This document shows positions 8,792-56,204 of a stretch of DNA of 64,000 nucleotides, piece by piece. The translations under genes were made by a program, and so were the position numbers. Positions within the stretch are counted from its first letter, which is position 1. Each line of letters opens with the position of its first letter. The DNA comes from an uncultured Muribaculaceae bacterium (GTDB lineage Bacteria; Bacillota_I; Bacilli_A; RF39; UBA660): positions 10,188-74,187 of the forward strand of contig CAZVUP010000002.1 in the NCBI GenBank assembly GCA_964630365.1, given 5' to 3'. Below the pieces are notes generated by a model, which saw only the letters and a list, made by a program, of their open reading frames with translations, was not told where the DNA came from and searched no databases.

Positions 8792-8927
8792 TTCAATATC
8801 ACCGCCTTTAATATATCACATAGGAATTATTTATCAAATTATATTTTTATTATTAATATTTATTTGACACTAAATTTACATGATAAAAAAGATTAATAAA
8901 TATTATAATATTTATATAATGATAAAG

Positions 8928-8960
8928 GAAAAAAGAAATAGTTCGAACTAACTATTTCTT
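8928..8960. terminator. hairpin terminator downstream of 8965..9930 gene
   Basis: GAAATAGTT cgaact AACTATTTC with T-runs on both strands. Confidence 0.4.
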
Positions 8961-8964
8961 TTTT

Positions 8965-9930
8965 TTACATCTTCTTAACAAATTGTACAGCAGATTTTTC
9001 AACATTACTCTTTTCTGTAAAAGACTTATCTATAACTAATCCAGGTTGTAACATTTCTTTCAAAAACACTTCATTTAAATATCGATATATTTCACTTTCT
9101 TCAAACTTCTTTTTACTAGAATTTATAGACCAATCTACTGGAATACCACCAATAATGCTAGTATTAGAAATCATTCTTCTTTGTTCTAGATCAATATACC
9201 AAGTAATCGGCTCTATTTTAAAACAAGCATAACCACCTTTTATCTTAAGAATCGTATACATATCACCATCTTTTATAAATATAGGTGCTTTTCTAAAAGT
9301 GTGAGCCTTAGAATCATAAATAGTAAATCCGTCACAGTCGGTTTCACTAAAATCATCAATAGATGATTTAAATATAACTTCTTGAGGATAATAACCATAT
9401 TCAATTGTTCCAATATTTTCTCGATAATCTTCAGGTACATCAACAAAGTTAAGTGTTTTATTTGGCAAACTTTTAATCTCAGAAATAGCCTGGCTCAAAA
9501 CCTCATCTGCTTCATCATAAGTTATAACCGGTCTAATATTAGTATGATTAGCAAAACTTATCTCCTTAAATGGTGGATTAGCATGTAATGAGTAAGAAAA
9601 TCTATTGGCATTTTCGTAATATAATACATTATATCTTCCATATTTACCTAAACCAAAATTATAAATATAATAAGTCCTAGCGGTTTTATTATGAGCTATT
9701 ATTTCGTATCTATATCTTTCACCATCTGAGCACCATCCTGCCCAATCTGAAGCAGATAAATCATAGAACCTACAGGCATAGTACATCGCAATATGATTCA
9801 ATAAAAATTCATTACCAACTAGCGGAGTAAAATAATCAATATTAAGGTCTCTATTCCTTTTTCCAATATAATGTCTATTATCTGTAATAAATAATTCATC
9901 ATCACTTAGTATTGTTGCTTTTAAATTCAT
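8965..9930 (-). CDS. hypothetical protein; C-terminal P-x-L-x-IDKSFTE motif
   Basis: 321-aa ORF with no TM and no known motif recognised. Shares its C-terminal motif with the upstream 430-aa ORF. Confidence 0.5.
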   Translation of the reverse strand: MNLKATILSDDELFITDNRHYIGKRNRDLNIDYFTPLVGNEFLLNHIAMYYACRFYDLSASDWAGWCSDGERYRYEIIAHNKTARTYYIYNFGLGKYGRYNVLYYENANRFSYSLHANPPFKEISFANHTNIRPVITYDEADEVLSQAISEIKSLPNKTLNFVDVPEDYRENIGTIEYGYYPQEVIFKSSIDDFSETDCDGFTIYDSKAHTFRKAPIFIKDGDMYTILKIKGGYACFKIEPITWYIDLEQRRMISNTSIIGGIPVDWSINSSKKKFEESEIYRYLNEVFLKEMLQPGLVIDKSFTEKSNVEKSAVQFVKKM

Positions 9931-9951
9931 ATTATCACTTCCCTAACATTA

Positions 9952-11244
9952 TTATTGATTGTTATTTTCTTTCTGAAAAGTTTTAACTCTATTTTTTTCA
10001 CTAACATCACCAAAATCAAGTGCTTCTCTAAATTGTTCACTAACTAACTCAAAATAATCTTTTTTATTCGTAGAAACCAAATCAAATATCTCTGTAAATG
10101 ATTTATCGATTAATAATTTTGGAGATAATGGATCAATTTCTTCTTCTAAAATTCCACTTCTAATATTCATTCTCTTTTGGAATTCTCTCAACTGATCTAC
10201 CGTAACACTTATAAACCCATTATTAGAAAATTCTGCTTCAAGTACAGAAATAACGTCTTCTATTTCTTCACTTGTTATATTAACACTTTTATATCCACCT
10301 AATTTTATATTTAACAAAGTATCTGTAACTTGCTGATGATTATTATCAACTCTTTGATATTTAACATTAATAACATCATCATACTTATAAATTTCTAAAA
10401 AGTGATGCTTCCTATATTCAGTCCAGCCACTAAAAACAATAGCTGAACTTGCTTTTCCTTCAGTTAACCCAGGGAAATTACTTATCCGCATATCTAGAGG
10501 CAAATACCTTCTAACATCATCCACACCCATATTTTCAAAACAAATACCAGAAAAGCTTTGACATAAACCCTTTTTATCAATATTAATAATTCCATATATA
10601 ACATTACCATCTTCAATAAAAGTATAATTGTCTCGCATACCATCAATTGGAATATAGTAATCGCCATAAGTATATAAATGCTCAAAATGTTTTGTATATA
10701 TACCATCTTTTTTAAATATTTTTGTTAACAATCTTTGGTTAGCTATTCTACCACTTCTAGTTTCTACATCTGTTGAATAAACAACAGAAAATTTAAATCC
10801 ATCTGTAGAACATAAATTAATATCATTTTTCCTCTCTCGTATAAAAGATAGCCCATAATCATCATAATTAAAAGTCATTTTTGTAATAATCGGCTTACTA
10901 GAATCTATCCAATATAGACTTTCTATCCTATAATCATTGCCAGTTATAATTACATTTATAAATTTAGTATCACCACCAAAAGAATTAAACAAATCAGCAT
11001 TTGCAGTATATTGAGATGAATACAAAATGTTATTCTTTGTATCCAACACTTCAATAGAAGGAATTTTAAAGTCAATACTTTTAATTACATAGTCATCTAG
11101 CCTAGAAGCATCTACTGAAATATTAAACAACTCAACCACATCCAGCAATGTTGCTGTCCCATCATTTCTTTCTCCTGTATAAAATTTATATCTCCTTTTT
11201 ATCTCTCTTCTTAAATAATCATTTCTTCTTGAGTGCATCAACAT
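9952..11244 (-). CDS. hypothetical protein; C-terminal P-x-L-x-IDKSFTE motif
   Basis: 430-aa ORF. C-terminal LSPKLLIDKSFTEIF parallels LQPGLVIDKSFTEKS of the neighbouring ORF. Confidence 0.5.
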   Translation of the reverse strand: MLMHSRRNDYLRREIKRRYKFYTGERNDGTATLLDVVELFNISVDASRLDDYVIKSIDFKIPSIEVLDTKNNILYSSQYTANADLFNSFGGDTKFINVIITGNDYRIESLYWIDSSKPIITKMTFNYDDYGLSFIRERKNDINLCSTDGFKFSVVYSTDVETRSGRIANQRLLTKIFKKDGIYTKHFEHLYTYGDYYIPIDGMRDNYTFIEDGNVIYGIINIDKKGLCQSFSGICFENMGVDDVRRYLPLDMRISNFPGLTEGKASSAIVFSGWTEYRKHHFLEIYKYDDVINVKYQRVDNNHQQVTDTLLNIKLGGYKSVNITSEEIEDVISVLEAEFSNNGFISVTVDQLREFQKRMNIRSGILEEEIDPLSPKLLIDKSFTEIFDLVSTNKKDYFELVSEQFREALDFGDVSEKNRVKTFQKENNNQ

Positions 11245-11322
11245 TCTCCTTTGTCATAGTATTATAGCATACATTTTTTACTTTTATACAATTAAATTAC
11301 AAAAATAACAATTATATTTGCA

Positions 11323-12441
11323 TCAACTATTACATTTAGAAATATTAAGTATAATTCCAATAGATGCCATTGATACAAGTAAAGAAGACCCACCATAAGA
11401 AAGAAATGGTAATGTAACCCCAGTAACTGGAATTAAGCCAACTACTACCATTAAATTCATAGTAGCTTGAAAAATCATCTGGAAAATAATACCAAATGAA
11501 AGATATTTTGCAAATTTATCATTACATTTACACGCAATCATTATTCCTCTATAAAATAACAAAGCAAAAAGACCAATCACAATAATAGAACCAACTATCC
11601 CAAACTCTTCTGCTATTACAGAAAAAATAAAATCAGTTTGTGGCTCTGGTAAATAAAAATGTTTCTGTACCGAATTTAAATATCCTGTACCGAGTAACCC
11701 ACTTGGCCCTATTGCATATAAACTTTGAATTATTTGAAATCCAGTTCCCAACTCATCACGCCAAGGATTAATAAAAGATGTAATTCTATCCATCCGATAA
11801 GGAGCTATTAAAATTAAACCGATTATCCCAGCAATTCCTAAAAGTCCACCATAAGCAAAAAATCTTAATGAAACTCCTGAAATAAAAAGAAGAGAAATAA
11901 TAGAAATGAACATAATTACTCCCGTACCTAAATCTGGTTGAAGCATAATTAATCCAAAAAACAATAAAACAATAAAAAGAATTGGAAAAATCCCTTTTAA
12001 ATAGTTTTTAATATATTTCTCACTATTTGCTAAATATTTACTCGTAAAAATTAATAAACTAAGCTTTGCAGCTTCACTAGGCTGAATACCTAAAGAACCA
12101 ATTCCAAACCAACTTCTACTACCATTTCTTACACTTCCTATACCTGGAATTAATACAAGAATAAGCAATATAAATGATACTAAAAGTATTATATTAGAAT
12201 ATTTATAATAAATCTTATAATCTAATTTTGAAATATACATCATTACTATCAATCCAATAAAAAAAAATATAGTTTGATACTTTAAATAATGAAAAGAATC
12301 ATTAAATTTATAAGCCGCCCAAACGCTTGAAGAAGAATATATCATTATTAACCCAAATAACGCTAAAGAAATAACTGTAAGAAATAATATTTTATCCGTC
12401 TTCTGCATATTATCACCTAATAAATTATATTTACAAAACAA
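11323..12441 (-). CDS. ftsW: SEDS family peptidoglycan polymerase (FtsW/SpoVE/RodA)
   Basis: 10-TM protein with the SEDS motif PSEAAKLSLLIF. Positioned after mraY, as spoVE/ftsW is in Bacillus. Confidence 0.85.
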   Translation of the reverse strand: MFCKYNLLGDNMQKTDKILFLTVISLALFGLIMIYSSSSVWAAYKFNDSFHYLKYQTIFFFIGLIVMMYISKLDYKIYYKYSNIILLVSFILLILVLIPGIGSVRNGSRSWFGIGSLGIQPSEAAKLSLLIFTSKYLANSEKYIKNYLKGIFPILFIVLLFFGLIMLQPDLGTGVIMFISIISLLFISGVSLRFFAYGGLLGIAGIIGLILIAPYRMDRITSFINPWRDELGTGFQIIQSLYAIGPSGLLGTGYLNSVQKHFYLPEPQTDFIFSVIAEEFGIVGSIIVIGLFALLFYRGIMIACKCNDKFAKYLSFGIIFQMIFQATMNLMVVVGLIPVTGVTLPFLSYGGSSLLVSMASIGIILNISKCNS

Positions 12442-15132: not shown

Positions 15133-15783
15133 TTATTTAAGAAAAAGTCTTACTTTACTGCCATCTTCTACTTTTTGAAAGGCAGCAGGTGCTTGTTCAA
15201 AAACTATTTCTCCTGAACCTTCAACAACAACTTCAAAATTACCTAATTCTTTTTTAGCCTCCTGAATACTTTTTCCAACTACATTGGGAACAATATATGT
15301 AACTTTATCATTCCATTCTAAATCTTTTTCTAGCCCATTATCTTGCTTTTCAATTTTTAATGCGTCAATTATATCCAACAAAATTCTTCTCGCAATTGGT
15401 GCAGTTGTATAACTAGATAACATGGCTGTATTCTTAGGATTATCAATAGCTAAATATAAAACTGCTTCCGGATCATTTGATGGAACTACAGCCATAAAAG
15501 ACATTATATAATTATTAACTAAATAATGACCATTTTCTTGTTTTTGAGCAGTACCAGTTTTACCACCTATTCTATAACCATCTATATAAGCACTTTTTCC
15601 TCCACCTTTAGCAACAACACTCTCAAGAGCATATCGCATAATTGCTGATGTTTTAGAACTGACAACTTTTCTCCTCAAAATTGTCTTATATTCTTTAACT
15701 ACTGTATTTGTATTATCGCTTATATCTTTAACAATATGAGGTTTATACAAATATCCTCCATTAACAACAGCCGATACAGCCAT
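15133..15783 (-). CDS. class B PBP (SpoVD-like), 3' portion of a gene split by an inserted element: KTG motif plus one PASTA domain
   Basis: AVSAVVNGGYLYKP and GGKTGTAQ transpeptidase motifs. C-terminal PASTA (VPNVVGKSIQEAKKELG). Upstream in frame: stop-TPLQQV-MAV. Confidence 0.8.
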   Translation of the reverse strand: MAVSAVVNGGYLYKPHIVKDISDNTNTVVKEYKTILRRKVVSSKTSAIMRYALESVVAKGGGKSAYIDGYRIGGKTGTAQKQENGHYLVNNYIMSFMAVVPSNDPEAVLYLAIDNPKNTAMLSSYTTAPIARRILLDIIDALKIEKQDNGLEKDLEWNDKVTYIVPNVVGKSIQEAKKELGNFEVVVEGSGEIVFEQAPAAFQKVEDGSKVRLFLK

Positions 15784-17428
15784 TACCTGTTGTAACGGGG
15801 TCTAATAAATGAAACTTTTTGCCTAAATTATCAGAAGTAGTATATACACTTTCTCCTGTCTTAATAAAAATATCCAATTTAATTTGTTTATCACTTTGTT
15901 TATGAACTATTATTCTATCTATTATCTCATTAAATATATCACTATAACATTTATCATCTTCTAAGCATTTTTCTAATGCATTCTTTATTTCACTAATTTT
16001 GTTTTCAATATTATTTTTATCTTTTTTATTACTTTTTAATTCATTCATTTTTGTTTGATAAATAGTTAAATCTTCATTAATTAAATCTACTTGCTTTTTG
16101 TAGTCTTCTTTAGATAAGTACTCTTCCATAACAAGTTCTAGTAGTTTATCTTTTTTATTATTTAAAACTATTATTTTAGATTCTAAATTTTTTATTTCTA
16201 TTTCATTATTATTAGTTTCTAAATAATTCTTACATTCGCTTAATATTTCATCAAAGATATTATTTCTTCTTTTAAATAGTATATTAAACACATCTTTAAA
16301 TACTTCATCCAATTCAAGTTCAAATACTCTAGGATTAGAACAACCTTTTAAACTTTCACGCCTATAAACTTGGCATTCCCATACAGGATTATTCTTTCTC
16401 TTACCAGCACTTGATCTGTGATATGTAAGATTATGACAGCCGCAATATATTTTTCCTGAATAAGTATATCTATTTTGAAATACTGCTTTATTAATAGTAC
16501 GATTGGTAAAACTATCTTGTCTCTCTTTTAATTTAACATTAGCTCGTTCCCATAATTCTTCAGATACTATTGGTGGAACATTATCATAGTCCTTATAAAC
16601 AATCCAATCAGATTCATTTAATCTTTTCTTTTGTTTAGTACGATAATCTAATACTTTTGATTTATGTCCACAATAATATCCTTTATATTTAGGATTTTCT
16701 ATAATTCTTGTAAGTATTGTTGTATCTATTCTTTTGCCAGTTTTACTTTTATAACCTAAACTATAAAGATATCTTGATACTTTAGATAATCCATCAGTAG
16801 TATTAGCATATCTATTAAATATTATTTTAATCATTTCTGCTTGTGCTTCATCTATTACTAATTTTCCTTTATCTTTTACATAACCATAAATATTAGAACA
16901 TCCTAACACTACACCATTATCAATACTTCTCTTCATCCCAAATGAAACTCTTTCAGAAAGTCTCCTAACTTCATCTTGAGCAATTGAAGACATCATTGTA
17001 AGTCTGAGTTCAGAATCAGGTAATATCGTATTAATATTATCATTTAAGAAATATACACCAACACCATTAGATAATAGTTCTTGTGTATAGATAATACTAT
17101 CTAGTGTACTTCTTGAAAATCTTGATATTTCTTTAGTTAAGATTAAATCAAACTTATGTTTTTTAGCGTCTTCAATCATTCTTAGAAATTCTTCACGTTT
17201 TTTAACTTGTGTTCCTGATATTCCTTCATCAATATATGAACCTATAAATTCCCAGTTAGGAACTTTACTAATATAATCATTAAAGAAAGATATTTGATTA
17301 GATAAAGAATGTAATTGCTCATCTTTATCAGTAGATACTCTTGCATAAAAACATACTTTCAAATTTAATTCTTGTAATGGAACACCTTTCATAATATTAT
17401 TCCTAACTGTATATAGGTCCATAATCAC
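15761..17428 (-). CDS. large serine recombinase (SpoIVCA/CisA/phage-integrase type)
   Basis: Resolvase N-domain with catalytic Ser context (FYARVSTDKDEQLHSLSNQ). Recombinase domain. Zn-ribbon (CGCHNLTYH...WECQVYRRESLKGC). C-terminal coiled coil. Its last 23 nt overlap the PBP 3' piece. Confidence 0.9.
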   Translation of the reverse strand: MIMDLYTVRNNIMKGVPLQELNLKVCFYARVSTDKDEQLHSLSNQISFFNDYISKVPNWEFIGSYIDEGISGTQVKKREEFLRMIEDAKKHKFDLILTKEISRFSRSTLDSIIYTQELLSNGVGVYFLNDNINTILPDSELRLTMMSSIAQDEVRRLSERVSFGMKRSIDNGVVLGCSNIYGYVKDKGKLVIDEAQAEMIKIIFNRYANTTDGLSKVSRYLYSLGYKSKTGKRIDTTILTRIIENPKYKGYYCGHKSKVLDYRTKQKKRLNESDWIVYKDYDNVPPIVSEELWERANVKLKERQDSFTNRTINKAVFQNRYTYSGKIYCGCHNLTYHRSSAGKRKNNPVWECQVYRRESLKGCSNPRVFELELDEVFKDVFNILFKRRNNIFDEILSECKNYLETNNNEIEIKNLESKIIVLNNKKDKLLELVMEEYLSKEDYKKQVDLINEDLTIYQTKMNELKSNKKDKNNIENKISEIKNALEKCLEDDKCYSDIFNEIIDRIIVHKQSDKQIKLDIFIKTGESVYTTSDNLGKKFHLLDPVTTGNGCIGCC

Positions 17429-17433
17429 ACCTC

Positions 17434-17640
17434 CTAAGTTAATAGTTTATAATTATTTAAATCATTTATATATTTATCATCAATTTTACTTTTTTCTATC
17501 TCAATTTTATTTAATAATTTATTAATACAAAAATTATACATTCCATCATCTATAATATTTCTTCCTTTTAAATATTCAAGTAATTTAATACTTGTTTCTA
17601 TTTCAATTATTCTAGATGGAACTTTATCAATACTCTCCAT
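17434..17640 (-). CDS. small hypothetical protein (68 aa) immediately upstream of and co-oriented with the recombinase
   Basis: ORF ends 6 nt before the recombinase start. No motif recognised. Confidence 0.35.
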   Translation of the reverse strand: MESIDKVPSRIIEIETSIKLLEYLKGRNIIDDGMYNFCINKLLNKIEIEKSKIDDKYINDLNNYKLLT

Positions 17641-17685
17641 ATACTTTGTCCTTTCTTTTAAGTTTATTTTTAAAAAAACTAAAAA

Positions 17686-17707
17686 AGAACTTAAGGCATT
17701 AAGTTCT
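17686..17707 (-). terminator. hairpin terminator
   Basis: AGAACTTAA ggca TTAAGTTCT perfect 9-bp stem followed by a T-run on the minus strand. Confidence 0.35.
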
Positions 17708-17811
17708 ACAAAAAATTTGAAAACTTAAATACCACAAAGGACAAAATTAGACTAAATCATCATTTGAAATAAATTAAGTTTTCAAATAACAATTTAGTTC
17801 TTATTCAATAA

Positions 17812-18237
17812 TTAATATTTTATAATTTTTCTAGCTATTTCATAGCCATCAATATTATCAGGTAATAATTCATCATGTTCTAGTACTAAGAATAATTCTG
17901 CAATTACATCTTCCTTTTCTTTAAATGATAATCTTTCAAATATTCGTATCATCTTTTTATATTCTTTTGGATAAAGACGATAAAGATTATAATTATAGTT
18001 CCCATACTCATTAATCTCATTAACTAAATAAGGATAATCAATACTACTTGGATTAAATACTTCTATATCAATACTATCATCAAGTAAACTAGGATTAACC
18101 TCACTTAAACTATTAATTTGATCTCTATCCCATAAGTTAAAAACATAGCTAATAAATTTTAGTTTATTTTCTTTATCAAGTTCATTTATTTTTAAAACTA
18201 ATTCTTTTACTTCATTACTTGTATTTCTTAAATACAT
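17812..18237 (-). CDS. hypothetical protein (141 aa), element cargo
   Basis: ORF only. No motif recognised. Confidence 0.4.
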   Translation of the reverse strand: MYLRNTSNEVKELVLKINELDKENKLKFISYVFNLWDRDQINSLSEVNPSLLDDSIDIEVFNPSSIDYPYLVNEINEYGNYNYNLYRLYPKEYKKMIRIFERLSFKEKEDVIAELFLVLEHDELLPDNIDGYEIARKIIKY

Positions 18238-18480
18238 ATTAAAGGCACTCCTTCATCTTCAATTTAAGCCATTTTAAGAGACTTTATTTTTTATACTAAT
18301 AACCGATTAAGATTAATATCAAAGTCCCTTATTTCTTAAATTAAGTATCAACAAATTAAAATTTAGTTTTAATATTTATCACTTAAAAAAATAAATTTTG
18401 CAATAGTTTTTTTTAAATTTTTTTAATTTATTTTCTAATCTTATTACCATAATATTTTTCCTCCTTCCATTTTAAATTCA

Positions 18481-18678
18481 TTATCTTTTTTCATATCTTT
18501 CTATATAAGATCTATATCCTAGTTCTAATAAATAGATAAACATTTTATTCATACTAAAATTATTTTTAATTGCTAAAAGCTGTATTCTAGTTTTTAAATT
18601 ATTATCTATTCTTAGAGTGATTCTTTCAGTACATCTCATAAATTTTTTCCTCCATTCTTTAAAATATAGAGTAGCCAC
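18481..18678 (-). CDS. putative ribbon-helix-helix (CopG/Arc-like) DNA-binding protein
   Basis: 65 aa. RITLRIDNNLKTRIQLLAIKNNFSMNKMFIYLLELGY fits a beta-strand plus two-helix RHH fold. GTG start lies inside a copy of the repeated motif. Confidence 0.4.
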   Translation of the reverse strand: MATLYFKEWRKKFMRCTERITLRIDNNLKTRIQLLAIKNNFSMNKMFIYLLELGYRSYIERYEKR

Positions 18679-18930
18679 TTTTCACTTTTTTTAGGTATTT
18701 TTTAGGTAAAAAGACTTGCATTTTTTTAATGGGCATAAGGAGAATGCACCACAAACTTATATTTATCTTATAAAATAAAGCAAATATAGTGGTGTCATTA
18801 CTATTTTTGCACTTGCAAAAATGACTACTTTTATAGTAGTAAGTGGCTACTCATATACAAACCATCCTTTTATACCAACAAAAAAAAGTGGCTACTCTTT
18901 CTCTTAAAAGTGCCCACTCATGACTATTTC
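18667..18930. repeat. four copies of a 12-13 bp motif AAGTGGCTACTC (one inverted at the RHH gene start, three direct upstream)
   Basis: Copies at 18671-18686 (minus), 18846-18860, 18888-18902 and a variant AAGTGCCCACTC at 18912-18926. Confidence 0.55.
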
Positions 18931-19247
18931 ATTAAAAATATGTGCTTCCAATACTTTTTAATTAATAAAACCATCTCCCTCCAATGAAAAAAAGAGAAGA
19001 TTATAGTTCTTCTCCATATAATTTTTTCATATCATACACTATTATAACTATTCACAAACACAAGTCAAGCTCATTTTGTGTCCAATTCATGTCATACTAT
19101 GTACAATTTATGTCGCAAAAAAATGCATGTTTTCTTCACAATTCTTGCATATTTTACTATATTATACTACTTGACAATATGAAGTCAAGCCGATTTTGGT
19201 CTGGATTTGGACTTATTTGATCCGTTTTTGGTATGATTTGTGTTTTG

Positions 19248-21038
19248 TTAATTTTCATCATAATTTTTTTCAATAATAATGTCATCAATTTCTTTCTTAT
19301 GTGAACTTGAATAATTATTTGTCTGTAAGTCAATATAGAATTCATTATCTTTCATAAGTTCATTATGAGTACCTTGTCCAACAATATTACCTTTATTTAA
19401 AACAATTATTTTATCAGCAATCTTCATTACATCTTTTTTGTGAGTTATAATTATTATTGTATGATCTAATTTTAAATTTTCAAAAATATCTTTAATTTTT
19501 TCAACTAACAAGGTATCTAATGAACTTGTAACCTCATCAAAGATTAATATTTCAGCTTTTGATAATAGTGTCCTTGCTATTGCTAGTAATTGTTTTTGTC
19601 CTCCACTAAAGTTTGTAGCATTCTCTGTTAAAATAGTATTATATCCTTTTGGTAAACTCATTATATAATCATGAATACCAACTCTTTTACAAGCTTCAAT
19701 TTGATGCTCTATATTTGAATCTATTAGAGATAAATTTCTTTTAATGCTCATATTAAATATAAATGGAGATTGATTAACTCCAACTACATTAGTAGAGTAT
19801 ACATCTTTTGAATAATCATATAAATTTTCTCCATCTATTAGAATTTGACCATCATCTATTTTATATTTTCTGAGAATCAAATTTGTAATAGTTGTTTTAC
19901 CAGAGCCACTATGACCAACAAGTGCAGTAATTTTATTTGGTTCAGCAACAAAACTAATGTTTTCTATATTTCCTTTATTTTTAGATTTATAAGAAAAATT
20001 CACATTTTTAAATTCAACTAATCCATCAATATAATCATTGTCATTCATTCCAAAAGTTATTTGTTGTTTGCTTGAATAATTTAATATATTATTAATTCTT
20101 GTTATAGAAATAGACCATTCTCTAATTTGTCTTGAATATCCCATGAGATCATTTGTATTAGACATTATATTTTCAAAATATGTAATTAATAGTATTAACA
20201 TATTTACTTCATATCTACCTTTTAATACAAAAAACACTAATACTAAATATAATAATACTTTACCAAAATGTATTATAAATGGTAATAAACTTGATCTAAT
20301 ATTAACATATTTTCTCTTTGACATATATTGGTCAGACCATCTATTAGCTATTATATAAAAATTATTTTTTATCTTATCATAAATATTAAAAACTTTAATT
20401 TCACCTAATCCATTTAATATTTGTGACAAATTATCAGTTAGTTTATCTCTATATTTTTGTTGGCCTCTTAAATATTTTGTGCTCATTATATTACAATAAT
20501 CAAAAGACTTTAAATATAAATATTCTAATATCAAAACAAAAATACCAATATAAATATTTGTTTTTAAAAAGATAAATATCATTATAATAACTTTAACAAA
20601 AACAACAATTATTTCACAAACATTATCAATCATTTCAGATAAATTAGCAGTATCAGTGTTTACAGTATTTAAAATTGTTCCCTTAGATAATTTATCTGAA
20701 AACTCTGTGTCGTAGGTAAATACTTTATCTACAATTTTCTCTCTTAAATTTTTATAACTATACTTAAAATTATGAGAATATGAAACATAATTCAGATACC
20801 AGAATAAATTATATGCAATATATGTAATAGCCAACAAGCCTATATTCATATATGTTGCACTTGCATTACCATTAGTTACCTGATAAATAATATTGGAAGT
20901 AAATACTGGAATTAATAAACTAGATAGGTGTGCCATTATAGAACCGAAGAATAATAAAAATATCCATTTTTTAGTACCTTTAACTAACTTAAAAAAATCT
21001 CTTATTATTTTTATATTATCTTTTATCATAGTTACCAC
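19248..21038 (-). CDS. ABC transporter, fused permease/ATP-binding half-transporter (exporter type)
   Basis: N-terminal 6-TM domain. Walker A GHSGSGKTT, signature LSGGQKQLLAIARTL, Walker B ILIFDEVTSSLD. Confidence 0.85.
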   Translation of the reverse strand: MVTMIKDNIKIIRDFFKLVKGTKKWIFLLFFGSIMAHLSSLLIPVFTSNIIYQVTNGNASATYMNIGLLAITYIAYNLFWYLNYVSYSHNFKYSYKNLREKIVDKVFTYDTEFSDKLSKGTILNTVNTDTANLSEMIDNVCEIIVVFVKVIIMIFIFLKTNIYIGIFVLILEYLYLKSFDYCNIMSTKYLRGQQKYRDKLTDNLSQILNGLGEIKVFNIYDKIKNNFYIIANRWSDQYMSKRKYVNIRSSLLPFIIHFGKVLLYLVLVFFVLKGRYEVNMLILLITYFENIMSNTNDLMGYSRQIREWSISITRINNILNYSSKQQITFGMNDNDYIDGLVEFKNVNFSYKSKNKGNIENISFVAEPNKITALVGHSGSGKTTITNLILRKYKIDDGQILIDGENLYDYSKDVYSTNVVGVNQSPFIFNMSIKRNLSLIDSNIEHQIEACKRVGIHDYIMSLPKGYNTILTENATNFSGGQKQLLAIARTLLSKAEILIFDEVTSSLDTLLVEKIKDIFENLKLDHTIIIITHKKDVMKIADKIIVLNKGNIVGQGTHNELMKDNEFYIDLQTNNYSSSHKKEIDDIIIEKNYDEN

Positions 21039-21048
21039 ATCCTAACTT

Positions 21049-21900
21049 TTATACTCCAACTAATTCAGATTCTAATATACTAATTATTTCTTTTATTGCA
21101 TTAATTGTATCTTCAAATTTAACCCCTTTTGCATATAAATTTTTTGAAACATATTCATTCCATAAATTATTCATGTTATTATCATCAATCAAATCATTAA
21201 TAACTTCATTAAATTGTTCTATATCAATATTTGTTTCTCTTCTTTTAAAAGTATTATTAATTGCTTTAATCAAGTTATTTTTATTTAATTCATTCATCTT
21301 TATATTGATTAATATATAGACATCATAAAAATCCTTTAATCTGGTATTTAATAAACCTATAGTAACAATAGTTTGAAATTTTTCTGCTAGTACTGTCTCA
21401 AGTGTATATGACATTATAGGTATTTTTTTATTCTCAAAAATAGAATTATAATTATATTTCATCTCTTTTGGTGTAATAACATCTCCTGTTGTTAATTCAA
21501 CAGTAATATAGGTTTTATTATTATCTAACTTAGATAATATATTTAATCTAAAACCTCCATATTCATCTTCTAATCTAATATCTTTAATAGAAACAACTTG
21601 AAATGATACACCATCATCAATATCTATATTAAGTATTTCATTAAATACTTTTTCTACATCGTTTTTTGTAAGAGGGATACCCTTTAAAGTTGCATCCATA
21701 TCTTTAGTAGTTCTTTCATCATCTCCAATAATAGAAGTAAGTAATAATCCACCTTTTAATATTATTTGCCCTCTATAATTACTTATAGATATTCTTTCTA
21801 AAATTCTTTCAAAGTAAAATAATTGATAAAATTTTTGTGAAATATCACTATTACCATGTGCTTTTTTAGATATGATGTTTTTTAATTTGTCAGAATTCAT
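21049..21900 (-). CDS. AbiEii/AbiGii-type nucleotidyltransferase toxin (DUF1814)
   Basis: N-terminal FYFERILERISISNYRGQIILKGGLLL matches the AbiEii family N-terminus. 283 aa. Confidence 0.7.
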   Translation of the reverse strand: MNSDKLKNIISKKAHGNSDISQKFYQLFYFERILERISISNYRGQIILKGGLLLTSIIGDDERTTKDMDATLKGIPLTKNDVEKVFNEILNIDIDDGVSFQVVSIKDIRLEDEYGGFRLNILSKLDNNKTYITVELTTGDVITPKEMKYNYNSIFENKKIPIMSYTLETVLAEKFQTIVTIGLLNTRLKDFYDVYILINIKMNELNKNNLIKAINNTFKRRETNIDIEQFNEVINDLIDDNNMNNLWNEYVSKNLYAKGVKFEDTINAIKEIISILESELVGV

Positions 21901-22511
21901 TAAAGTAACACCTCCATATATTCAAGAACTTTTTTATCAATATTTAATTTTTTTGCATATTTCATTAGTTTTAATAAATTTTTATCTTTTCTTTCGGCAT
22001 ACCATTTTAATGCTTTTGTAAAAATCTCTTTATCCATATGATTTCTATATTTAACTATATCACAAATAGTTCTTTCTAAATCATAAGTTCTAAGTTTCAT
22101 TCCAAAAGGAGATTCAACAGTAGTTAAACCTAGGTCTAAAAACTCTTTTTTTACATAATGTAATTGAACATTTTTATCCTTACTTAAACTACCACTATAT
22201 CCAACTGGTACAGTCATATCAAAATAAAGTGGTGTTCTATCAGATAAATCATAAAAATAAAGCGCTGTAGAATGAGAAAAAACACAGTTTTTAGATTTTA
22301 ATTGATATTTATAATAATCATCACAAAAAGAATTAGTAATTGCATAATATCCTCTTGTAATTCTTTCTAATTTATTTTGTTCAACTAATCTTGTTAATTC
22401 AATAGTATTAATATTTGCATCCTTAACTTGTTTTGTTGTCACATATCCGTTATTTTCATTTGCAATTTTAATAATTTTCTCAGCATTAGTCATATTATCA
22501 CTTTCCTTCAT
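21900..22511 (-). CDS. AbiEi-type antitoxin/transcriptional regulator
   Basis: N-terminal winged-helix-like block (YVTTKQVKDANINTIELTRLVEQNKLERITRGYY). Start overlaps the stop of the AbiEii gene. Confidence 0.65.
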   Translation of the reverse strand: MKESDNMTNAEKIIKIANENNGYVTTKQVKDANINTIELTRLVEQNKLERITRGYYAITNSFCDDYYKYQLKSKNCVFSHSTALYFYDLSDRTPLYFDMTVPVGYSGSLSKDKNVQLHYVKKEFLDLGLTTVESPFGMKLRTYDLERTICDIVKYRNHMDKEIFTKALKWYAERKDKNLLKLMKYAKKLNIDKKVLEYMEVLL

Positions 22512-23135
22512 TTTAATTTTATCATTTATTTAAAACTAAGTAAATGTATTTTGTTGCTTTTATACTTATTTTTTTATTTTTTTGCGTTTTTTTACAACAT
22601 TATATATAAACAAAAAAGCCAACTTGTCTTGTCAGCTTTTCTGTCAAACATGCATTTATTTATAAATAATGCATCATTCATAAATAAATGTTTACACCTT
22701 TGTAAGCTTTGACATGCTTACACTCACTACTTACTGCTTGAATAATATTTAGTGGCAAAATGAGCTTAATACTCAACAATATCCCATTCCCCATAATCCT
22801 ATCTTAAGTTTTGTAACAATAAATCGTTACATAGCGCTAAAATTACATTTAATGGTTGTTAACTAATCATTTAATACTAAGGGTGTACCACCAAAGGTAA
22901 AATCGCTTTTAACACGACATCACCTCCTAATTTTCGTCATTTTCAAGATAAAATATATACAAGTATACACTTTATCCATCTAACGACAACTAAATTATAT
23001 CATAAATCCCAGTTTTTACCAAGTAAATAAAAGGAAAAAGTCAAATTTTTATGAATAAATTATAATTAAATTCAACATCATACTTTTTCATATATTTACT
23101 AGTAATTCCTATAGTTATAGTAAAGGTATCATTTA

Positions 23136-24392
23136 TTAGACAGTAAGGTGAATTGGTGTAACACTAACTCCCTGTCCAAAAGCACTAGTAGCAAGTTCAA
23201 CATTTCCAACCCTATTTAAAGGAAATAAAATACCACTTCCTTCACCATTTAAATCAATACCTGTCTTTTCACCAAAACCAAATTTATTAATATAAGAAAA
23301 AAGTCTTTCTTTACCCAAAAGTTGCCCTATTCTGACAAAACCAGGATTACAAGAATTTTGTAATACTTGAAGAAAAGTCTGATCACCATGTCCTCCTGCC
23401 TTCCAACATTTTAAAATACTACCATCTACGTTTACTTTACCCGAATCATAAAAATGATCATTAAAAATATCAATAACGCCTTCTTCAACAGCTGAAGCCA
23501 TTGTAACCACTTTAAAAGTACTTCCTGGCTCATAAGATGCCCAAATAGGTAAATTTCTACTAAGAGTTGCACTATCATAATCTTTATAATTATTTGCATC
23601 AAAATCAGGTGTAGAACTCATTCCTAGTATTTCACCATTTTTAGGATTAACTACAATCGCTAAAGCCATATCTGGTTGAAACATATCAACAATATTATCC
23701 ATCTCGCGCTCTAAAGATTTTTGTATATTAATATCTATTGTTAAATTAATATTCATCCCACTTGTAGGGGCAACATAAACATCAGTCATATTAATCTTAT
23801 TTCCATGGGCATCAGCAAAATACTTTATTGCTCCATTTTTACCAGTCAAATACTTATCATATTGTAGTTCTAATCCAGCTAATCCTTGATTATCGATACC
23901 AACATACCCTAATGAATGAGAAAGTAAATCTTTATATGGATAATTTCTTTTAGCTTCTTTTACTAAATAAACACCTTCTAAGTTTAATTTATCAATTCTA
24001 TCAGCAATATCATAAGATAATCTTCTCCCTTCAGGATGAACTCTTTCTATTGAAACTTTTTTCATAACATGCTTTTTCATTTCATCATAACTAACATTAA
24101 GAATCTTAGAAAGCTCAGTAATAGCTTTTTTCTTTTCCTTAATTTGATTTGGTATCAACACTAAAGATGTTGTCGTCAAATTATCAGCAAGAACATTACC
24201 ATTTCTATCAAGTATTTTCCCTCTGTCTGCTTCAATTTCTAAATTTCTACTCCATAAGTCTTTAGCTAAATTATTTAACTTTTTATATTGAAAAAACTGA
24301 ATATAAAAAACTTTAAATATTATTAAAATAAATAATAGTAACATAATTAAAAATAAAACTTTAATACGTCTATCTATTCCTTTTTTAAACAT
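23136..24392 (-). CDS. class B PBP (SpoVD-like), 5' portion of the gene split by the inserted element: TM anchor, dimerisation domain, SxxK and SxN motifs
   Basis: MFKKGIDRRIKVLFLIMLLLF TM helix. STFK (SxxK) and SCN (SxN) transpeptidase motifs. Ends GQGVSVTPIHLTV-stop, exactly where PBPs continue with TPLQ...AVSAV. Confidence 0.85.
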   Translation of the reverse strand: MFKKGIDRRIKVLFLIMLLLFILIIFKVFYIQFFQYKKLNNLAKDLWSRNLEIEADRGKILDRNGNVLADNLTTTSLVLIPNQIKEKKKAITELSKILNVSYDEMKKHVMKKVSIERVHPEGRRLSYDIADRIDKLNLEGVYLVKEAKRNYPYKDLLSHSLGYVGIDNQGLAGLELQYDKYLTGKNGAIKYFADAHGNKINMTDVYVAPTSGMNINLTIDINIQKSLEREMDNIVDMFQPDMALAIVVNPKNGEILGMSSTPDFDANNYKDYDSATLSRNLPIWASYEPGSTFKVVTMASAVEEGVIDIFNDHFYDSGKVNVDGSILKCWKAGGHGDQTFLQVLQNSCNPGFVRIGQLLGKERLFSYINKFGFGEKTGIDLNGEGSGILFPLNRVGNVELATSAFGQGVSVTPIHLTV

Positions 24393-24578
24393 ATTCCACC
24401 TCTGATATAGAATATGAAAAATTATTATCTAAAATGAAAAAAACTCTTATAGACACTTTAAATACTCATATTTAAAAAATATTCTTAAATTATGAAAACT
24501 AGCATTATAAATAATTATAAAAATATGTTTACATGAAAAAAAATATATATTAAAATATGCACAAAAGGAGGAATAATT

Positions 24579-25091
24579 ATGGGATTATTAAATCTTTTTA
24601 AAAGTAAGAATGATAATAATTATTTTAAATATGTTGAGGAACTTCCAAAAAATTTAAATGCAGCAGTAGAAAATACAATTATATTAGCACCAAAACTACT
24701 TAAAATAAAATCGAAAAAAGGAAAATCTATCGCGAAGGAAATATATGAAATAGTTAACAAAATATTAGAAACAGATCAACTTCCAGATGGTTATTCTACA
24801 ATAGATGATGTTGCTGTAGATTTAGGAATATACTATGGTTATGCCATATGTGAACATTATAAATGGTCATGGAAAGCAGTCAAAAACATTAAAAATGTTG
24901 AGGGAATAGTTAGTATAGTTTCTCCTGGTGAGAATTATAGTATACAACCAATGAATTATATGCTAAAAATATTAACTAAAAACAATATTGGTTTAAATGG
25001 TGAAAATGATAACACTATATTGCTTCTATTCAACATGTTAGAAGATATAGATAATAAACCTACTGAAAAAAAATATACTCCAATATTTTAA
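24579..25091 (+). CDS. hypothetical protein (170 aa)
   Basis: ORF with AGGAGG RBS and a downstream terminator. No motif recognised. Confidence 0.5.
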   Translation: MGLLNLFKSKNDNNYFKYVEELPKNLNAAVENTIILAPKLLKIKSKKGKSIAKEIYEIVNKILETDQLPDGYSTIDDVAVDLGIYYGYAICEHYKWSWKAVKNIKNVEGIVSIVSPGENYSIQPMNYMLKILTKNNIGLNGENDNTILLLFNMLEDIDNKPTEKKYTPIF

Positions 25092-25130
25092 AACTACTCT
25101 GTTTAATACAGAGTAGTTTTTTTATTTTTA
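25092..25130 (+). terminator. rho-independent terminator
   Basis: ACTACTCTGT ttaata CAGAGTAGT followed by TTTTTTTATTTTT. Confidence 0.55.
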
Positions 25131-25184
25131 ACTTAAAAAATCATAGAAAATTTATTAATTAAAATGAAAAAAGTGCTTTGCACT

Positions 25185-35668: not shown

Positions 35669-36229
35669 TTATACTTTTATTTTAGAAATTATTCCCAACT
35701 TGTAATTAAATGTCTTTTTAGAAATAACACCAGTAGATGGATTATAATAAACAACTATTTTTACTTCTAACTTGCCATCAGGTTCAATAACTTTACCACT
35801 AACATCATCAAGTTTTATTGAAACTGGAGAAATAAGTTTTTTAAAATAATTATCAGTATAGTCAGGACTAGTCATTAAAGTAACCATTTCAATTGGAACT
35901 GTTCCTTCATTTTTAATAACAGCAATATAAGTTATTTCATCTCTAGGAGCATTTAATGTAAAATTCATATCCAATAGTTGACCTGATTCATCTATTTTAA
36001 AAGAACTTGTAGGCTCGACTTCTGACCCCTTTACAGAAGATGACTTCATAACCTCTGAGAAAATAACTTCATAATTACAACTTTTATTTTTCTCTTTTTG
36101 GAGCTGTACTGCTACAACACTAAATCCAATACCTAAACAAACAAGAGTAAAACAAAGAATAATTATAATACAATTTCTAATATTAATTCTTTTTTTCATA
36201 AAAATCACCTTCTTTTTATTGTTCAACAC
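35669..36229 (-). CDS. hypothetical secreted/anchored protein (186 aa)
   Basis: N-terminal signal anchor and a beta-strand-rich mature region. Its start overlaps the pbpB stop. Confidence 0.45.
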   Translation of the reverse strand: MLNNKKKVIFMKKRINIRNCIIIILCFTLVCLGIGFSVVAVQLQKEKNKSCNYEVIFSEVMKSSSVKGSEVEPTSSFKIDESGQLLDMNFTLNAPRDEITYIAVIKNEGTVPIEMVTLMTSPDYTDNYFKKLISPVSIKLDDVSGKVIEPDGKLEVKIVVYYNPSTGVISKKTFNYKLGIISKIKV

Positions 36230-38363
36230 TAAATTTTGGTGCTAATTTTAAATGTATTTCCATACCATCACCAATTGCTGTTCCTTCAGCAATTGACTGT
36301 TCATAAACATAGCCTGTTCCTTCCATGGTCACCTTAAGTCCTATTTTTTGTAAAATATCTTTAGCAATTTTTCCAGATATTCCATTAACATTAGGAACCA
36401 AAATATTAGTATCATTTGTTACTAAATACACAACCTCATTTGTTGTTATTGTATCATTAACTTTTTGAATTTGATTAATTACTTTATTACCATTTCCAAT
36501 AAACACATATCTGATACCCATACTATCAAGTAATACTCTTGCAGCATCAACTTTTTTATTAATTAAATTAGGCATTTTATATTCCTTAACTTCTACAGTA
36601 GAACTATTGCTATCAGTATTACCATAATACTTTGAAACATTATTAACTATATCTTTAACAGCATTGCTAACAGGCTTCTGACTACCACCACTTGGTCTCT
36701 TTACTGAAGCATATATTATAATTTGAGGATTACTCTTAGGATAAATCCCTGAAAAAGATGAAATAATATCCTCTTTACCTGATAGATATCCCCCACCTCG
36801 TTCATTAGCAATTTGCGCTGTACCTGTCTTTCCAATTAATTCTCCACTATCAATTCTATAACCACTACCAGTATTACCTACACCATTAACACAATCATCC
36901 ATTAATTGAAACATTTTAACTACTGTATTAGTTGAGGCAACTCTCTCTATCTCTTCTCTTCCTTTTTCCAGAACAATTTCTCCAGTAGAAGAATCTACTA
37001 TTTTAGATACTAAATAAGGTTCTAATAACATTCCATCATTAGTAAGAGGCGTCATAGCTTTCACATTTTGAATAGGTGTTGTAGTTATACCTTGACCAAA
37101 TCCAGCATTATATATTTCTGTTTCATATTTAAATTCCAAATTACCCTTATTTTCACTTGGAAGTTCAATACCTGTTCTTCTACCAAAGCCCAGCCTTCTA
37201 AAATACTGTCTTAACATAATACTAGACATATGTCTATTGATCATATTAATAACCCCAACATTACTACTCATCGCATATCCCTTATCAAAAGAAATTACAC
37301 CCCAACCATTTCTATTCCAATCACCAATTTCTGTACCATCAGCAGTAGTATAGACACCTGACTTATATGTTTCATTTCCATTATAAACTCCATTTTCCAT
37401 AGCAGCCATATAAGTAAAAGTTTTCATTGTACTACCTGGTTCATAAGGAGAAGAAACCATTAAATCTAAATAATTTGTAATATCTCTAACATTCGGATCA
37501 AAAGAAGGATGAGTTGCTGTAGCAAGAATTGCTCCTGTCTTAGCATCCATAATAGTAATATGAAACCATTCCCAATCATAACTATAATCAGCATCAGTAA
37601 TTGCTTGTTCAACAAAAAATTGAATACTAGAATTAAGTGTTAAATAAATATCTTTACCTTGAACTGCATCTTTAGTAATAACTGGTGTATTAGCAATTCT
37701 ATATCCTTTTAAGTCTTTTTGATAAGTAGTATAACCATCTTCTCCCTTTAAAATATCATTATATTGCTTTTCTATTCCCATCTCACCAACAATTGACTCT
37801 TCATCATTACCAGTAGTATAGCCAATAGTATATGAAGCAAAATTACCTTTTGGATAATATCTTTTAAAACTTTCAATAAATCCAAGACCCGGTAAATTAA
37901 GATCTTCTATTTGTTTTTTAGTAATTTCATTTAGTCCTTTACCTTTTGTTCCAAATTCAGTTTGATAAACATTTTCTTTATTTAAATATTTTAAAATAGC
38001 ATCTTTTTCCATTCCTAAAATAGGTGCTAATTTTTCTGCTGTTTCTTCTTTATTTACAACATGCTGAGGTTTTTTTTCATTTGTCGTTCTCTTCGGATCT
38101 AAAAAAGCAATTAATTTATAGGAAGCAACATTTTGAGCTAACAAATCACCATCAGCCGAGTAAATAGCCCCCCTATTAGCCGAAATTACATCTGTCTTTG
38201 TCGTTCTTTGACTTGCTAAAGTACCAAGATCAATTCCATCTATTTTTCTAGACATTCCTAATTGAACTACTCTTCCTATCATTAGGCAAAATAAAAGAAG
38301 AGAACACACTATAAATACTTTAGAATATTTAATATTATTTTTTCTCTTCTTTCGTTTTTTCAA
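36216..38363 (-). CDS. pbpB: class B penicillin-binding protein 2B (division transpeptidase) with two C-terminal PASTA domains
   Basis: SxxK (STMKTFT), SSN and KTGTA motifs. Two PASTA repeats. 715 aa. Follows ftsL. Confidence 0.9.
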   Translation of the reverse strand: MKKRKKRKNNIKYSKVFIVCSLLLFCLMIGRVVQLGMSRKIDGIDLGTLASQRTTKTDVISANRGAIYSADGDLLAQNVASYKLIAFLDPKRTTNEKKPQHVVNKEETAEKLAPILGMEKDAILKYLNKENVYQTEFGTKGKGLNEITKKQIEDLNLPGLGFIESFKRYYPKGNFASYTIGYTTGNDEESIVGEMGIEKQYNDILKGEDGYTTYQKDLKGYRIANTPVITKDAVQGKDIYLTLNSSIQFFVEQAITDADYSYDWEWFHITIMDAKTGAILATATHPSFDPNVRDITNYLDLMVSSPYEPGSTMKTFTYMAAMENGVYNGNETYKSGVYTTADGTEIGDWNRNGWGVISFDKGYAMSSNVGVINMINRHMSSIMLRQYFRRLGFGRRTGIELPSENKGNLEFKYETEIYNAGFGQGITTTPIQNVKAMTPLTNDGMLLEPYLVSKIVDSSTGEIVLEKGREEIERVASTNTVVKMFQLMDDCVNGVGNTGSGYRIDSGELIGKTGTAQIANERGGGYLSGKEDIISSFSGIYPKSNPQIIIYASVKRPSGGSQKPVSNAVKDIVNNVSKYYGNTDSNSSTVEVKEYKMPNLINKKVDAARVLLDSMGIRYVFIGNGNKVINQIQKVNDTITTNEVVYLVTNDTNILVPNVNGISGKIAKDILQKIGLKVTMEGTGYVYEQSIAEGTAIGDGMEIHLKLAPKFSVEQ

Positions 38364-54812: not shown

Positions 54813-54824
54813 AAAATTATCCCC

Positions 54825-56150: not shown

Positions 56151-56204
56151 ATTTCACCACCAAAAAACACTATTAAGATAAAATATTAATAATATTAGTT
56201 AACA

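Follow-up and report, generated by a model that had tools for sequence, protein, structure and literature searches.

A predicted excisable serine recombinase element splits spoVD in an uncultured small-genome gut member of the Bacilli

Organization of the locus

The stretch of DNA analyzed here (hereafter the window) comprises 64,000 nucleotides of contig CAZVUP010000002.1 (assembly GCA_964630365.1) from an uncultured bacterium placed in the Bacilli lineage RF39. On its minus strand, a gene for a class B penicillin-binding protein (PBP) is divided into two segments, which we assign to the sporulation gene spoVD, and between them lies an element of 7358 bp carrying one large serine recombinase (LSR) gene, whose open reading frame (ORF) reaches across the right-hand junction into spoVD. 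The features of the split gene, the element and its attachment (att) sites are given below in window positions.

23149–24392, minus strand: spoVD 5′ segment, codons 1–414 and the first two bases (CA) of codon 415; with the element integrated, the frame extends to a stop at 23136 with the tail HLTV
15133–15790, minus strand: spoVD 3′ segment, from the third base of codon 415 to the stop; remaining transpeptidase domain and PASTA domain (Pfam domains assigned on the same gene in the related locus L092)
15793–23150, minus strand: integrated element, 7358 bp with one CA copy counted; breakpoints against the empty-site relatives L086 and L087
15761–17428, minus strand: LSR, 555 amino acids (aa) from a GTG, or 553 aa from the ATG at 17422 that gene callers choose
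23119–23180, minus strand: attL; host B arm 23180–23151, CA 23150–23149, element P′ arm 23148–23119
15761–15822, minus strand: attR; element P arm 15822–15793, CA 15792–15791, host B′ arm 15790–15761
23129–23141, plus strand: core of the terminal inverted repeat in the P′ arm, TCATTTATTAGAC
15800–15812, minus strand: core of the terminal inverted repeat in the P arm, TCATTTATTAGAC

Identity and repair of the interrupted gene

The 5′ ORF (24392–23136, minus strand) encodes 418 aa and ends in GVSVTPIHLTV, and the frame of the 3′ part starts with TPLQQVMAVSAVVNGG and continues to 15133 on the same strand. The initial annotation had read a serine recombinase element into a PBP gene and had predicted that precise excision would restore the frame. 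Both readings are borne out: LSR domains are present, and the two halves, joined in the register then proposed, give 1902 nt and 633 codons with no stop. The sequences quoted for the two flanks lie on the minus strand (GTTAGTGTTACACCAATTCACCTTACTGTCTAA at 23168–23136 and TTAGACCCCGTTACAACAGGTAATGGCTGT at 15806–15777); the strings are thus correct, but the ranges attached to them run a few bases short, GTTAGTGTTACACCAATTCACCTTACTGTCTAA being 3 bases longer than its range. Read further on the minus strand, the flanks are GGAGTTAGTGTTACACCAATTCACCTTACTGTCTAA at 23170–23136 and TTATTAGACCCCGTTACAACAGGTAATGGCTGT around 15800.

The joined protein was compared with the NCBIfam equivalog TIGR02214 (spoVD_pbp, cutoff 688 bits). 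It scores 702.8 bits, with residues 12–632 matching positions 4–634 of the 636-position profile in a single stretch. Its closest database relatives are 78–85% identical and nearly all exactly 633 aa long, and more than 100 intact homologues of exactly 633 aa read GQG.SVTP[IL]QQVMAVS at the position of the junction. The match to the SpoVD profile and the number of intact homologues of the same length show that the in-frame join is not due to chance. Judged by these sequence comparisons, the interrupted gene is spoVD, encoding a sporulation-specific class B PBP, and the predicted removal of 7358 bp is one that rebuilds the intact 633-aa SpoVD exactly. The window also encodes a separate division-type PBP of 715 aa (36216–38363), similar to PBP2X/2B and located in an mraZ–rsmH–ftsL cluster; thus, the split gene is the specialized sporulation paralogue. 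This second class B PBP gene is uninterrupted and carries a similar but distinct version of the target motif, GQGITTTPIQNVKAM.

For comparison with relatives, one genome per species was scanned, which returned 170 stretches encoding relatives; counts of loci given as fractions of 80 refer to the best 80 of these 170. The best 80 are from gut metagenome-assembled genomes (MAGs) labelled uncultured Bacilli, Tenericutes, Mollicutes or Erysipelotrichaceae, and closed chromosomes of 1.3–1.5 Mb are among them. The arrangement in the window might have arisen through an assembly or binning error that joined unrelated contigs, as the sequence is of metagenome type and repeats can cause chimeras. In the species of the window, however, the element is integrated in four other samples, in which the identical arrangement was assembled independently, and the junctions are built in the same way in 74 other species, among them ones with closed chromosomes. 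Samples in which this species occurs are SAMN15829904, SAMN15829910, SAMN15829916 and SRR12529046. We therefore give such an artefact almost no credence.

Position of the crossover

Three dinucleotides (AC, CC and CA) are common to attL and attR of the window within 11 bases, and exchange at any of them gives an in-frame gene reading TP(I/L)QQ, so the window alone cannot decide between them. The crossover had initially been placed at CC. Related loci do allow a decision. attL and attR were compared, and excision performed in silico, in 26 loci in which both junctions are available. The CA of the Gln415 codon is the sole adjacent pair identical in attL and attR in 26/26 loci. The two CC positions agree between attL and attR in just 62% and 81% of the loci: attL keeps the host CC of the Pro codon, and attR has CC, TC, CT, AC, GC or AT. 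Second, CA is the symmetry center of the rebuilt attP, 7 nt from both 13 bp arms, whereas CC would be 1 and 13 nt away. Third, a BLAST comparison of the window with empty-site relatives gives the breakpoints directly. The relative L086 (83% nucleotide identity), with the same gene order (TPR, LysR, spoVD, a 520-aa protein, mraY, ftsW), aligns up to window position 23149 and resumes at 15792, with a 2 nt overlap that is CA, and L087, also an empty site, shows the same breakpoints and the same CA overlap. Strand exchange by LSRs takes place at the dinucleotide in the center of a symmetric attP (PMC5499854). Based on the conservation in all 26 loci, the symmetry of attP and the overlap with empty-site relatives, we place the crossover at CA, the first two bases of the Gln415 codon (23150/23149 in attL and 15792/15791 in attR), 6 bases 3′ of the CC first proposed.

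Exchange at CC, or at AC three bases further upstream, is consistent with the window, where both pairs are shared and either would give an in-frame TP(L)QQ. In at least 10 of the 26 loci, however, CC is not shared, and an AC, AT or GC taken from attR would replace the conserved Pro; CC is also off-center in attP. We regard a crossover at either of these pairs as very improbable. With the crossover at CA, codon 414 is ATT (Ile), contributed by attL, and not the Leu of the TPLQ motif previously read in the repaired protein. The repaired protein thus reads VTPIQQ at the junction, with the same Ile as the closest empty-site relative; its length and frame are unaffected by the choice of CA or CC. 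The junctions predicted for each exchange are listed below.

CA exchange: attB ACACCAATTCAACAGG; attP GACCCCGTTACACCTTACTG
CA exchange, longer form: attB GTTAGTGTTACACCAATTCAACAGGTAATGGCTG; attP CATTTATTAGACCCCGTTACACCTTACTGTCTAATAAATG
CC exchange, as first proposed: attB ACACCGTTACAACAGG; attP GACCCCAATTCACCTTACTG

The initial annotation had also described an imperfect inverted repeat in attP. This repeat is real and longer than described, with 13 bp perfect arms inside 20 nt arms of 90% complementarity; TTAGAC and GTCTAA, however, are 16 nt apart and not 14, since the crossover dinucleotide had been omitted. The core TCATTTATTAGAC occurs only twice in the 64 kb window, at 15800–15812 (minus strand) and 23129–23141 (plus strand). 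As is characteristic of the attP of serine integrases, inverted-repeat arms surround a 2 bp non-palindromic sequence, CA, which is also found in attB. Natural P–CA–P′ junctions with the same 16 nt spacing are found in the related loci L001–L005, L023, L044, L051 and L074. These attP-like junctions (P arm, 7 nt, CA, 7 nt, P′ arm) are located at L001:5280, L002:2955, L003:3277, L004:2055, L005:5805 and 13026, L023:11612, L044:5103, L051:6760 and L074:6766. The junctions in L001–L005 and L023 were considered as excised circles, and this interpretation was rejected: L044 and L074 show the same junction between tandem elements within spoVD. The attP-type junctions thus fix the structure of the site and do not prove excision. 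In L005, at least two elements lie in a row, and L074 and L044 also carry broken copies of the recombinase.

Recombinase ORF and its C-terminus

The LSR contains the catalytic domain PF00239 (E = 1.6e-29, residues 27–173), with the motif YARVSTDKDEQ and the RVS serine at residue 32, followed by PF07508 (E = 9.8e-19, residues 195–303) and the zinc-ribbon domain PF13408, Zn_ribbon_recom (E = 7.7e-7, residues 323–380). Against PHROG, it matches the integrase family phrog_95 (E = 2.3e-111). The PDB matches are the catalytic domains of a conjugative-transposon recombinase, TP901-1 integrase, γδ resolvase and TnpX.

The LSR ORF ends in HLLDPVTTGNGCIGCC; host spoVD DNA supplies its last nine codons (TGNGCIGCC) together with its stop codon. 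The earlier proposal that the last codons of the recombinase gene and the PBP junction share the same DNA is therefore correct for the window, and it extends to the family: the ORF runs into a spoVD 3′ half starting at codon 413 or 414 in 74/80 loci, and the other six comprise five truncated at a contig end and L023, where the junction is of the tandem type. Conservation among the LSR homologues extends as far as KKFHLLD, beyond which each has its own tail (545–565 aa in total length), corresponding to host spoVD read in another frame. Where element ends abut (P0142 and P0174), the ORF instead runs 37 codons into the opposite end of the element. The corresponding sequence of the window is as follows.

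23041–23154, minus strand: left-end sequence forming a 37-codon LSR extension in the attP configuration, with the tail NSPYCLINDTFTITIGITSKYMKKYDVEFNYNLFIKI

This tail was compared in 29 elements. It is full length in about half of them, and its substitutions by codon position (198/212/386) fall mostly on the third position, an excess that suggests translation in the excised configuration. Integration thus appears to swap the C-terminus of the recombinase, with host-encoded residues in place of the tail carried by the element; the two isoforms would be 553 aa (integrated) and roughly 578 aa (attP form) long.

Gene content of the element

All of the genes of the element are on the minus strand. 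In addition to the LSR, the following features were identified.

21900–22511, minus strand: AbiEi-type antitoxin/regulator, cargo (PF13338, E = 7.6e-11); present in about 21 related elements
21049–21900, minus strand: AbiEii nucleotidyltransferase toxin, cargo (PF08843, E = 6.1e-36)
19248–21038, minus strand: ABC transporter with fused membrane and ATPase domains, cargo (PF00664, PF00005)
18481–18678, minus strand: 65-aa Arc/ribbon–helix–helix-like regulator (phrog_582 Arc-like repressor, E = 7.7e-5; weak HicB match)
17812–18237, minus strand: 141-aa conserved ORF, in 46/86 loci; no Pfam or PHROG match
17681–17707, minus strand: hairpin AGAACTTAA/TTAAGTTCT with a T-run after it, directly 5′ of the ribosome-binding site of o68
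17434–17640, minus strand: o68, a 68-aa ORF 6 nt upstream of the LSR; candidate recombination directionality factor (RDF)

Gene content was compared across 86 loci. The elements of relatives are 3.1–10.8 kb in size, and o68 and the recombinase are the only constant genes. The ORF o68 is present in 74/86 loci, and in most of those about 10 nt separate it from the LSR downstream; it has 1239 homologues, and among the 120 listed, none has a Pfam domain and the sole name given by the source is 'hypothetical protein'. Its predicted structure is a helical hairpin (pLDDT 84). A likeness of o68 to the coiled coil of LI integrase (TM 0.71, E about 1) was set aside and not taken as evidence. The ABC transporter is cargo of the window element only; its matches in related loci are 24–36% identical and, where boundaries are known, lie outside the element.

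Phage structural or replication genes were not found in the element, in which the PHROG matches are limited to the integrase and the Arc-like regulator. Searches with the LSR found no relative above 40% identity among INPHARED phages and PLSDB plasmids, and just two relatives, of 45% and 38% identity, in IMG/VR. There is thus no sign of a phage or plasmid origin, and we conclude that the insert is a non-phage integrative element.

Regarding the noncoding parts, the hairpin at 17681–17707 is nearly invariant among 52 aligned elements. The leader of o68 (17641–17811, minus strand) is highly conserved and folds far better than shuffled sequences (z = −7.15); in one of its helices, TTTGTCCTTT is base-paired with AAAGGACAAA, the ribosome-binding region. 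A structured RNA was considered for this leader and is not claimed, because the 52-element alignment contains no compensatory changes; a search of the element against Rfam (E ≤ 1) also gave no match. Between 18658 and 19190, two strong promoter-like sites of the type TTGACT-16-TATAAT (at 19188 and 19068, minus strand) precede a terminator-like hairpin (19015–18993), and AAGTGGCTACTC occurs in three to four copies, direct and inverted, upstream of the Arc-like ORF. These sites, the hairpin and the repeats may represent operators or a small RNA. A general scan for sigma-70 promoters was discarded: it gave 91 sites, compared with 80 ± 9.5 in shuffled sequence, and with a site count no higher than in shuffles it is uninformative in this 27% GC DNA.

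Three further observations concern the surroundings of the element. About 700 bp between the LysR gene and spoVD (24461–25159), with a 170-aa ORF at 24579–25091 (plus strand), are missing from L086. About 2.4 kb at 8885–11322, with two ORFs without family matches (8965–9930 and 9952–11244), are also missing from L086. Lastly, five adjacent paralogous ORFs at 52156–58857 encode polytopic membrane proteins of about 440–460 aa with a shared N-terminal sequence, WNYGF...IPY.DFN.

Distribution, site specificity and mobility

The element family is found at the same codon of spoVD in 74/75 informative species-level genomes, and among the 80 loci none has the LSR family in a gene other than spoVD. In-silico excision leaves the frame open across the junction in 26/26 loci, and all of their spoVD 3′ halves other than those truncated by a contig end are complete. 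The family always lands on the same conserved motif, which is, as read from these loci, strict site specificity. The LSRs are 59–93% identical to that of the window, and the 3′ halves of the host SpoVD are 42–77% identical, with no tracking between the two. This uncoupling indicates that the family moves between divergent hosts. As the target encodes a conserved motif of the catalytic domain, the element could pass between widely differing hosts. Some relatives also have tandem arrays and decayed copies of the recombinase.

Other LSRs, with 25–55% mutual identity and 25–43% identity to the window LSR, split spoVD at other conserved motifs: at STFK (around residue 292), at SxN (around residue 348) and near residue 534. 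For example, spoVD is in three pieces in L045 (3347–4237, 7589–7963 and 11622–12287) and in L082 (1–1041, 7484–7702 and 11634–12302), and the pieces in L062 are at 11628–11999 and 16936–17229. Interruptions by other LSRs are also present in L028, L075, L032, L074, L033, L027, L051 and L011. Each extra recombinase is located just upstream of the next spoVD segment, and in L082 a 64-aa ORF precedes the extra LSR.

A broader reading of these loci is offered tentatively, as a single proposal that we hold to be somewhat less probable than its opposite. The spoVD gene could be a multi-element landing pad in small-genome gut Bacilli, with at least four LSR families on STFK, SxN, VTP(I/L)QQ and the site around residue 534, and the three-piece genes could be rebuilt by orthogonal recombinases in the mother cell. 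As attP is located within the 3′ end of the recombinase gene, the switch between C-terminal isoforms (the conserved 37-aa tail when excised, host-encoded residues when integrated) could in addition bias the direction of recombination.

Sporulation context and proposed mechanism

The promoter region of the split gene and the sporulation genes of the window were also examined. Upstream of spoVD lies a −10-like box.

24413–24416, minus strand: CATA box, 24 nt upstream of the spoVD start codon

In Bacillus subtilis, the −10 consensus sequences of both sigma-E and sigma-K have CATA as their core. CATA is found at −22 to −27 in 15/16 spoVD orthologues; for comparison, it occurs at 4/63 of the window's gene starts and its frequency at random sites is 9%. 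The window also contains an intact sigK at 44653–45351 (minus strand), which scores 300.6 bits against NF004471 (cutoff 252 bits). In B. subtilis, spoVD is a cortex gene controlled by sigma-E (PMC517825), and the known intervening elements are almost exclusively in mother-cell genes (PMC6957869). By analogy with B. subtilis, the coding sequence in which the element lies would likewise be that of a sporulation gene expressed in the mother cell.

We propose the following mechanism. The LSR recombined attP of the element with a host attB consisting of the coding sequence of SVTP(I/L)QQ, with exchange at the CA of Gln415, and the reverse reaction between attL and attR removes 7358 bp and rebuilds the 633-aa SpoVD; this part of the mechanism is read from the sequence. 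By analogy with skin, SPβ, vfbin and gin, excision would take place in the mother cell, a terminally differentiating cell that requires spoVD to make the cortex; the genome of the spore would keep the element, excision being an event of the mother cell. The putative directionality factor o68 would permit excision, and its position just upstream of the LSR is the same layout as in skr–spoIVCA and sprB–sprA. The AbiE toxin–antitoxin pair may help to hold the element in place. The proposed mother-cell excision and role of o68 are based on the known behavior of this class of elements and from the convergence of several LSR families on one mother-cell gene. We consider the model as a whole, from the LSR element in spoVD and the CA crossover to mother-cell excision with o68 as directionality factor, to be probable.

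Several points weigh against this model. Neither an excised chromosome nor a circle of the window element was found, all of the contigs of the species being integrated, and the attP-type junctions in relatives are in tandem arrays or indistinguishable from them; a search of JGI metagenome contigs with an exact attP pattern of 30 specified bases gave 0 matches. The ORF o68 has no family match in Pfam or PHROG and no significant fold match in the PDB. Upstream of o68 and the LSR, no promoter of the sigma-E or sigma-K type was recognized, and there is a terminator-like hairpin. Sporulation of the uncultured host is itself deduced from its genes, and since the element is mobile, the intact spoVD halves could also reflect a recent insertion.

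These points leave room for an alternative, in which this is an ordinary mobile element, for which spoVD serves only as a conserved place to land that is harmless during growth; it would excise sporadically, in connection with transfer and not with development, and its carriers would sporulate poorly or not at all. The uncoupling of the LSR tree from the hosts indicates an actively mobile family, the cargo consists of defense and transport genes with no sporulation genes, and the lack of a recognizable sporulation-type promoter at o68 and the LSR fits sporadic excision. Related lineages have also lost sporulation repeatedly (PMC10868615). However, the recombinase precedes a spoVD segment in every readable case, distinct LSR families converge on this gene, and all of the loci have both spoVD halves intact. 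Neither the CATA promoter box nor sigK has been lost, and within one species the integrated state of the element is fixed across the samples; a permanent block of spore formation would presumably be costly for gut anaerobes. Sporadic excision in poorly sporulating hosts is thus, in our judgment, unlikely, and excision in the mother cell is the preferred explanation.

Implications

The published split sporulation genes are sigK, spoVFB, spoVR, spsM, gerE, kamA and yabG, and no report of a split spoVD, in connection with an intervening element, a serine recombinase or a prophage, was found in open-access papers. spoVD, which encodes an essential cortex-synthesis enzyme, would therefore join the short list of sporulation genes split by excisable elements. 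The split gene is widespread in an uncultured gut lineage with reduced genomes and is not an oddity of a single strain. This spread, the recombinase ORF that extends over attR and so gives alternative C-termini, and the occurrence of several LSR families in one gene are the unusual aspects of the system. Surveys of sporulation in MAGs that score gene presence may miss split genes. For example, a genome survey found spoVD reduced or absent in the uncultured order RF39 (PMC10868615), which may reflect splits overlooked by orthologue-based annotation. The family is also a source of natural serine integrases that appear to be orthogonal, have defined att sites and are each directed at a conserved PBP motif, and the exact att sites make the predicted excision directly testable by PCR or read mining.

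Comparison with known systems

The closest known systems are, along with gin and SPβ, skin in sigK of B. subtilis (SpoIVCA and Skr) and skinCd of Clostridioides difficile (CD1231 and CD1234), in which LSR-mediated attL × attR excision rebuilds a mother-cell gene. The small ORF immediately upstream of the recombinase gene is shared with the window element. However, skin is a defective prophage in sigK, and sigK is intact here, so the element is not skin proper. The arrangement of the recombinase gene also differs: spoIVCA and the adjoining 5′ part of sigK are read in the same direction (PMC10747680), and the 5′ end of spoIVCA faces the junction; the LSR of the window adjoins the 3′ half, its ORF crossing attR. 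The spoIVCA promoter and skr lie upstream of spoIVCA (PMC6957869). With spoIVCA beside the 5′ part of sigK and skr and the promoter upstream of it, its 3′ end does not cross the junction, and the comparison first drawn between the overlapping recombinase end and spoIVCA in skin does not apply.

SPβ in spsM (SprA and SprB; PMC5499854) likewise has a symmetric attP with the central dinucleotide inside a codon of the target gene, and its 545-aa LSR integrase has an adjacent RDF gene, a role for which the window has a candidate. The differences are that SPβ is an active phage of 134 kb and has a 16 bp shared core with a central AA, whereas CA alone is invariably shared here and the flanks differ. 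The heterocyst elements of Anabaena (in nifD, fdxN with XisF, and hupL) are similar in that several elements reside in genes needed only in a terminally differentiated cell, although they belong to another developmental system and phylum, and in the present lineage several elements can share one gene. Against the XisF model, the LSR scores 93.6 bits, below the cutoff of 375.

As a member of the class of intervening elements in sporulation genes, the window element has its own recombinase and att sites, and its excision in silico restores the ORF; the empty sites of relatives agree base for base. The prophage-like gene content of the original class definition (skin, SPβ, vfbin, vrin, gin and yin) is absent. 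The closest parallel in this respect is gin in gerE of Bacillus cereus ATCC 10987 (GirC and GirX; PMC5595907), also a non-phage element that splits a mother-cell gene, in which a serine recombinase and a small accessory factor act at a short shared core to rebuild the gene. gin has a different target, gerE, and is 28.6 kb long with three recombinases, whereas the element in spoVD is 7.4 kb long with one; the spoVD element resides in an uncultured gut bacterium of the Bacilli with a small genome, and its excision is predicted from sequence. The inclusion of a non-phage element has a precedent, since gin had already widened the class of intervening elements to those not derived from phages (PMC5595907).

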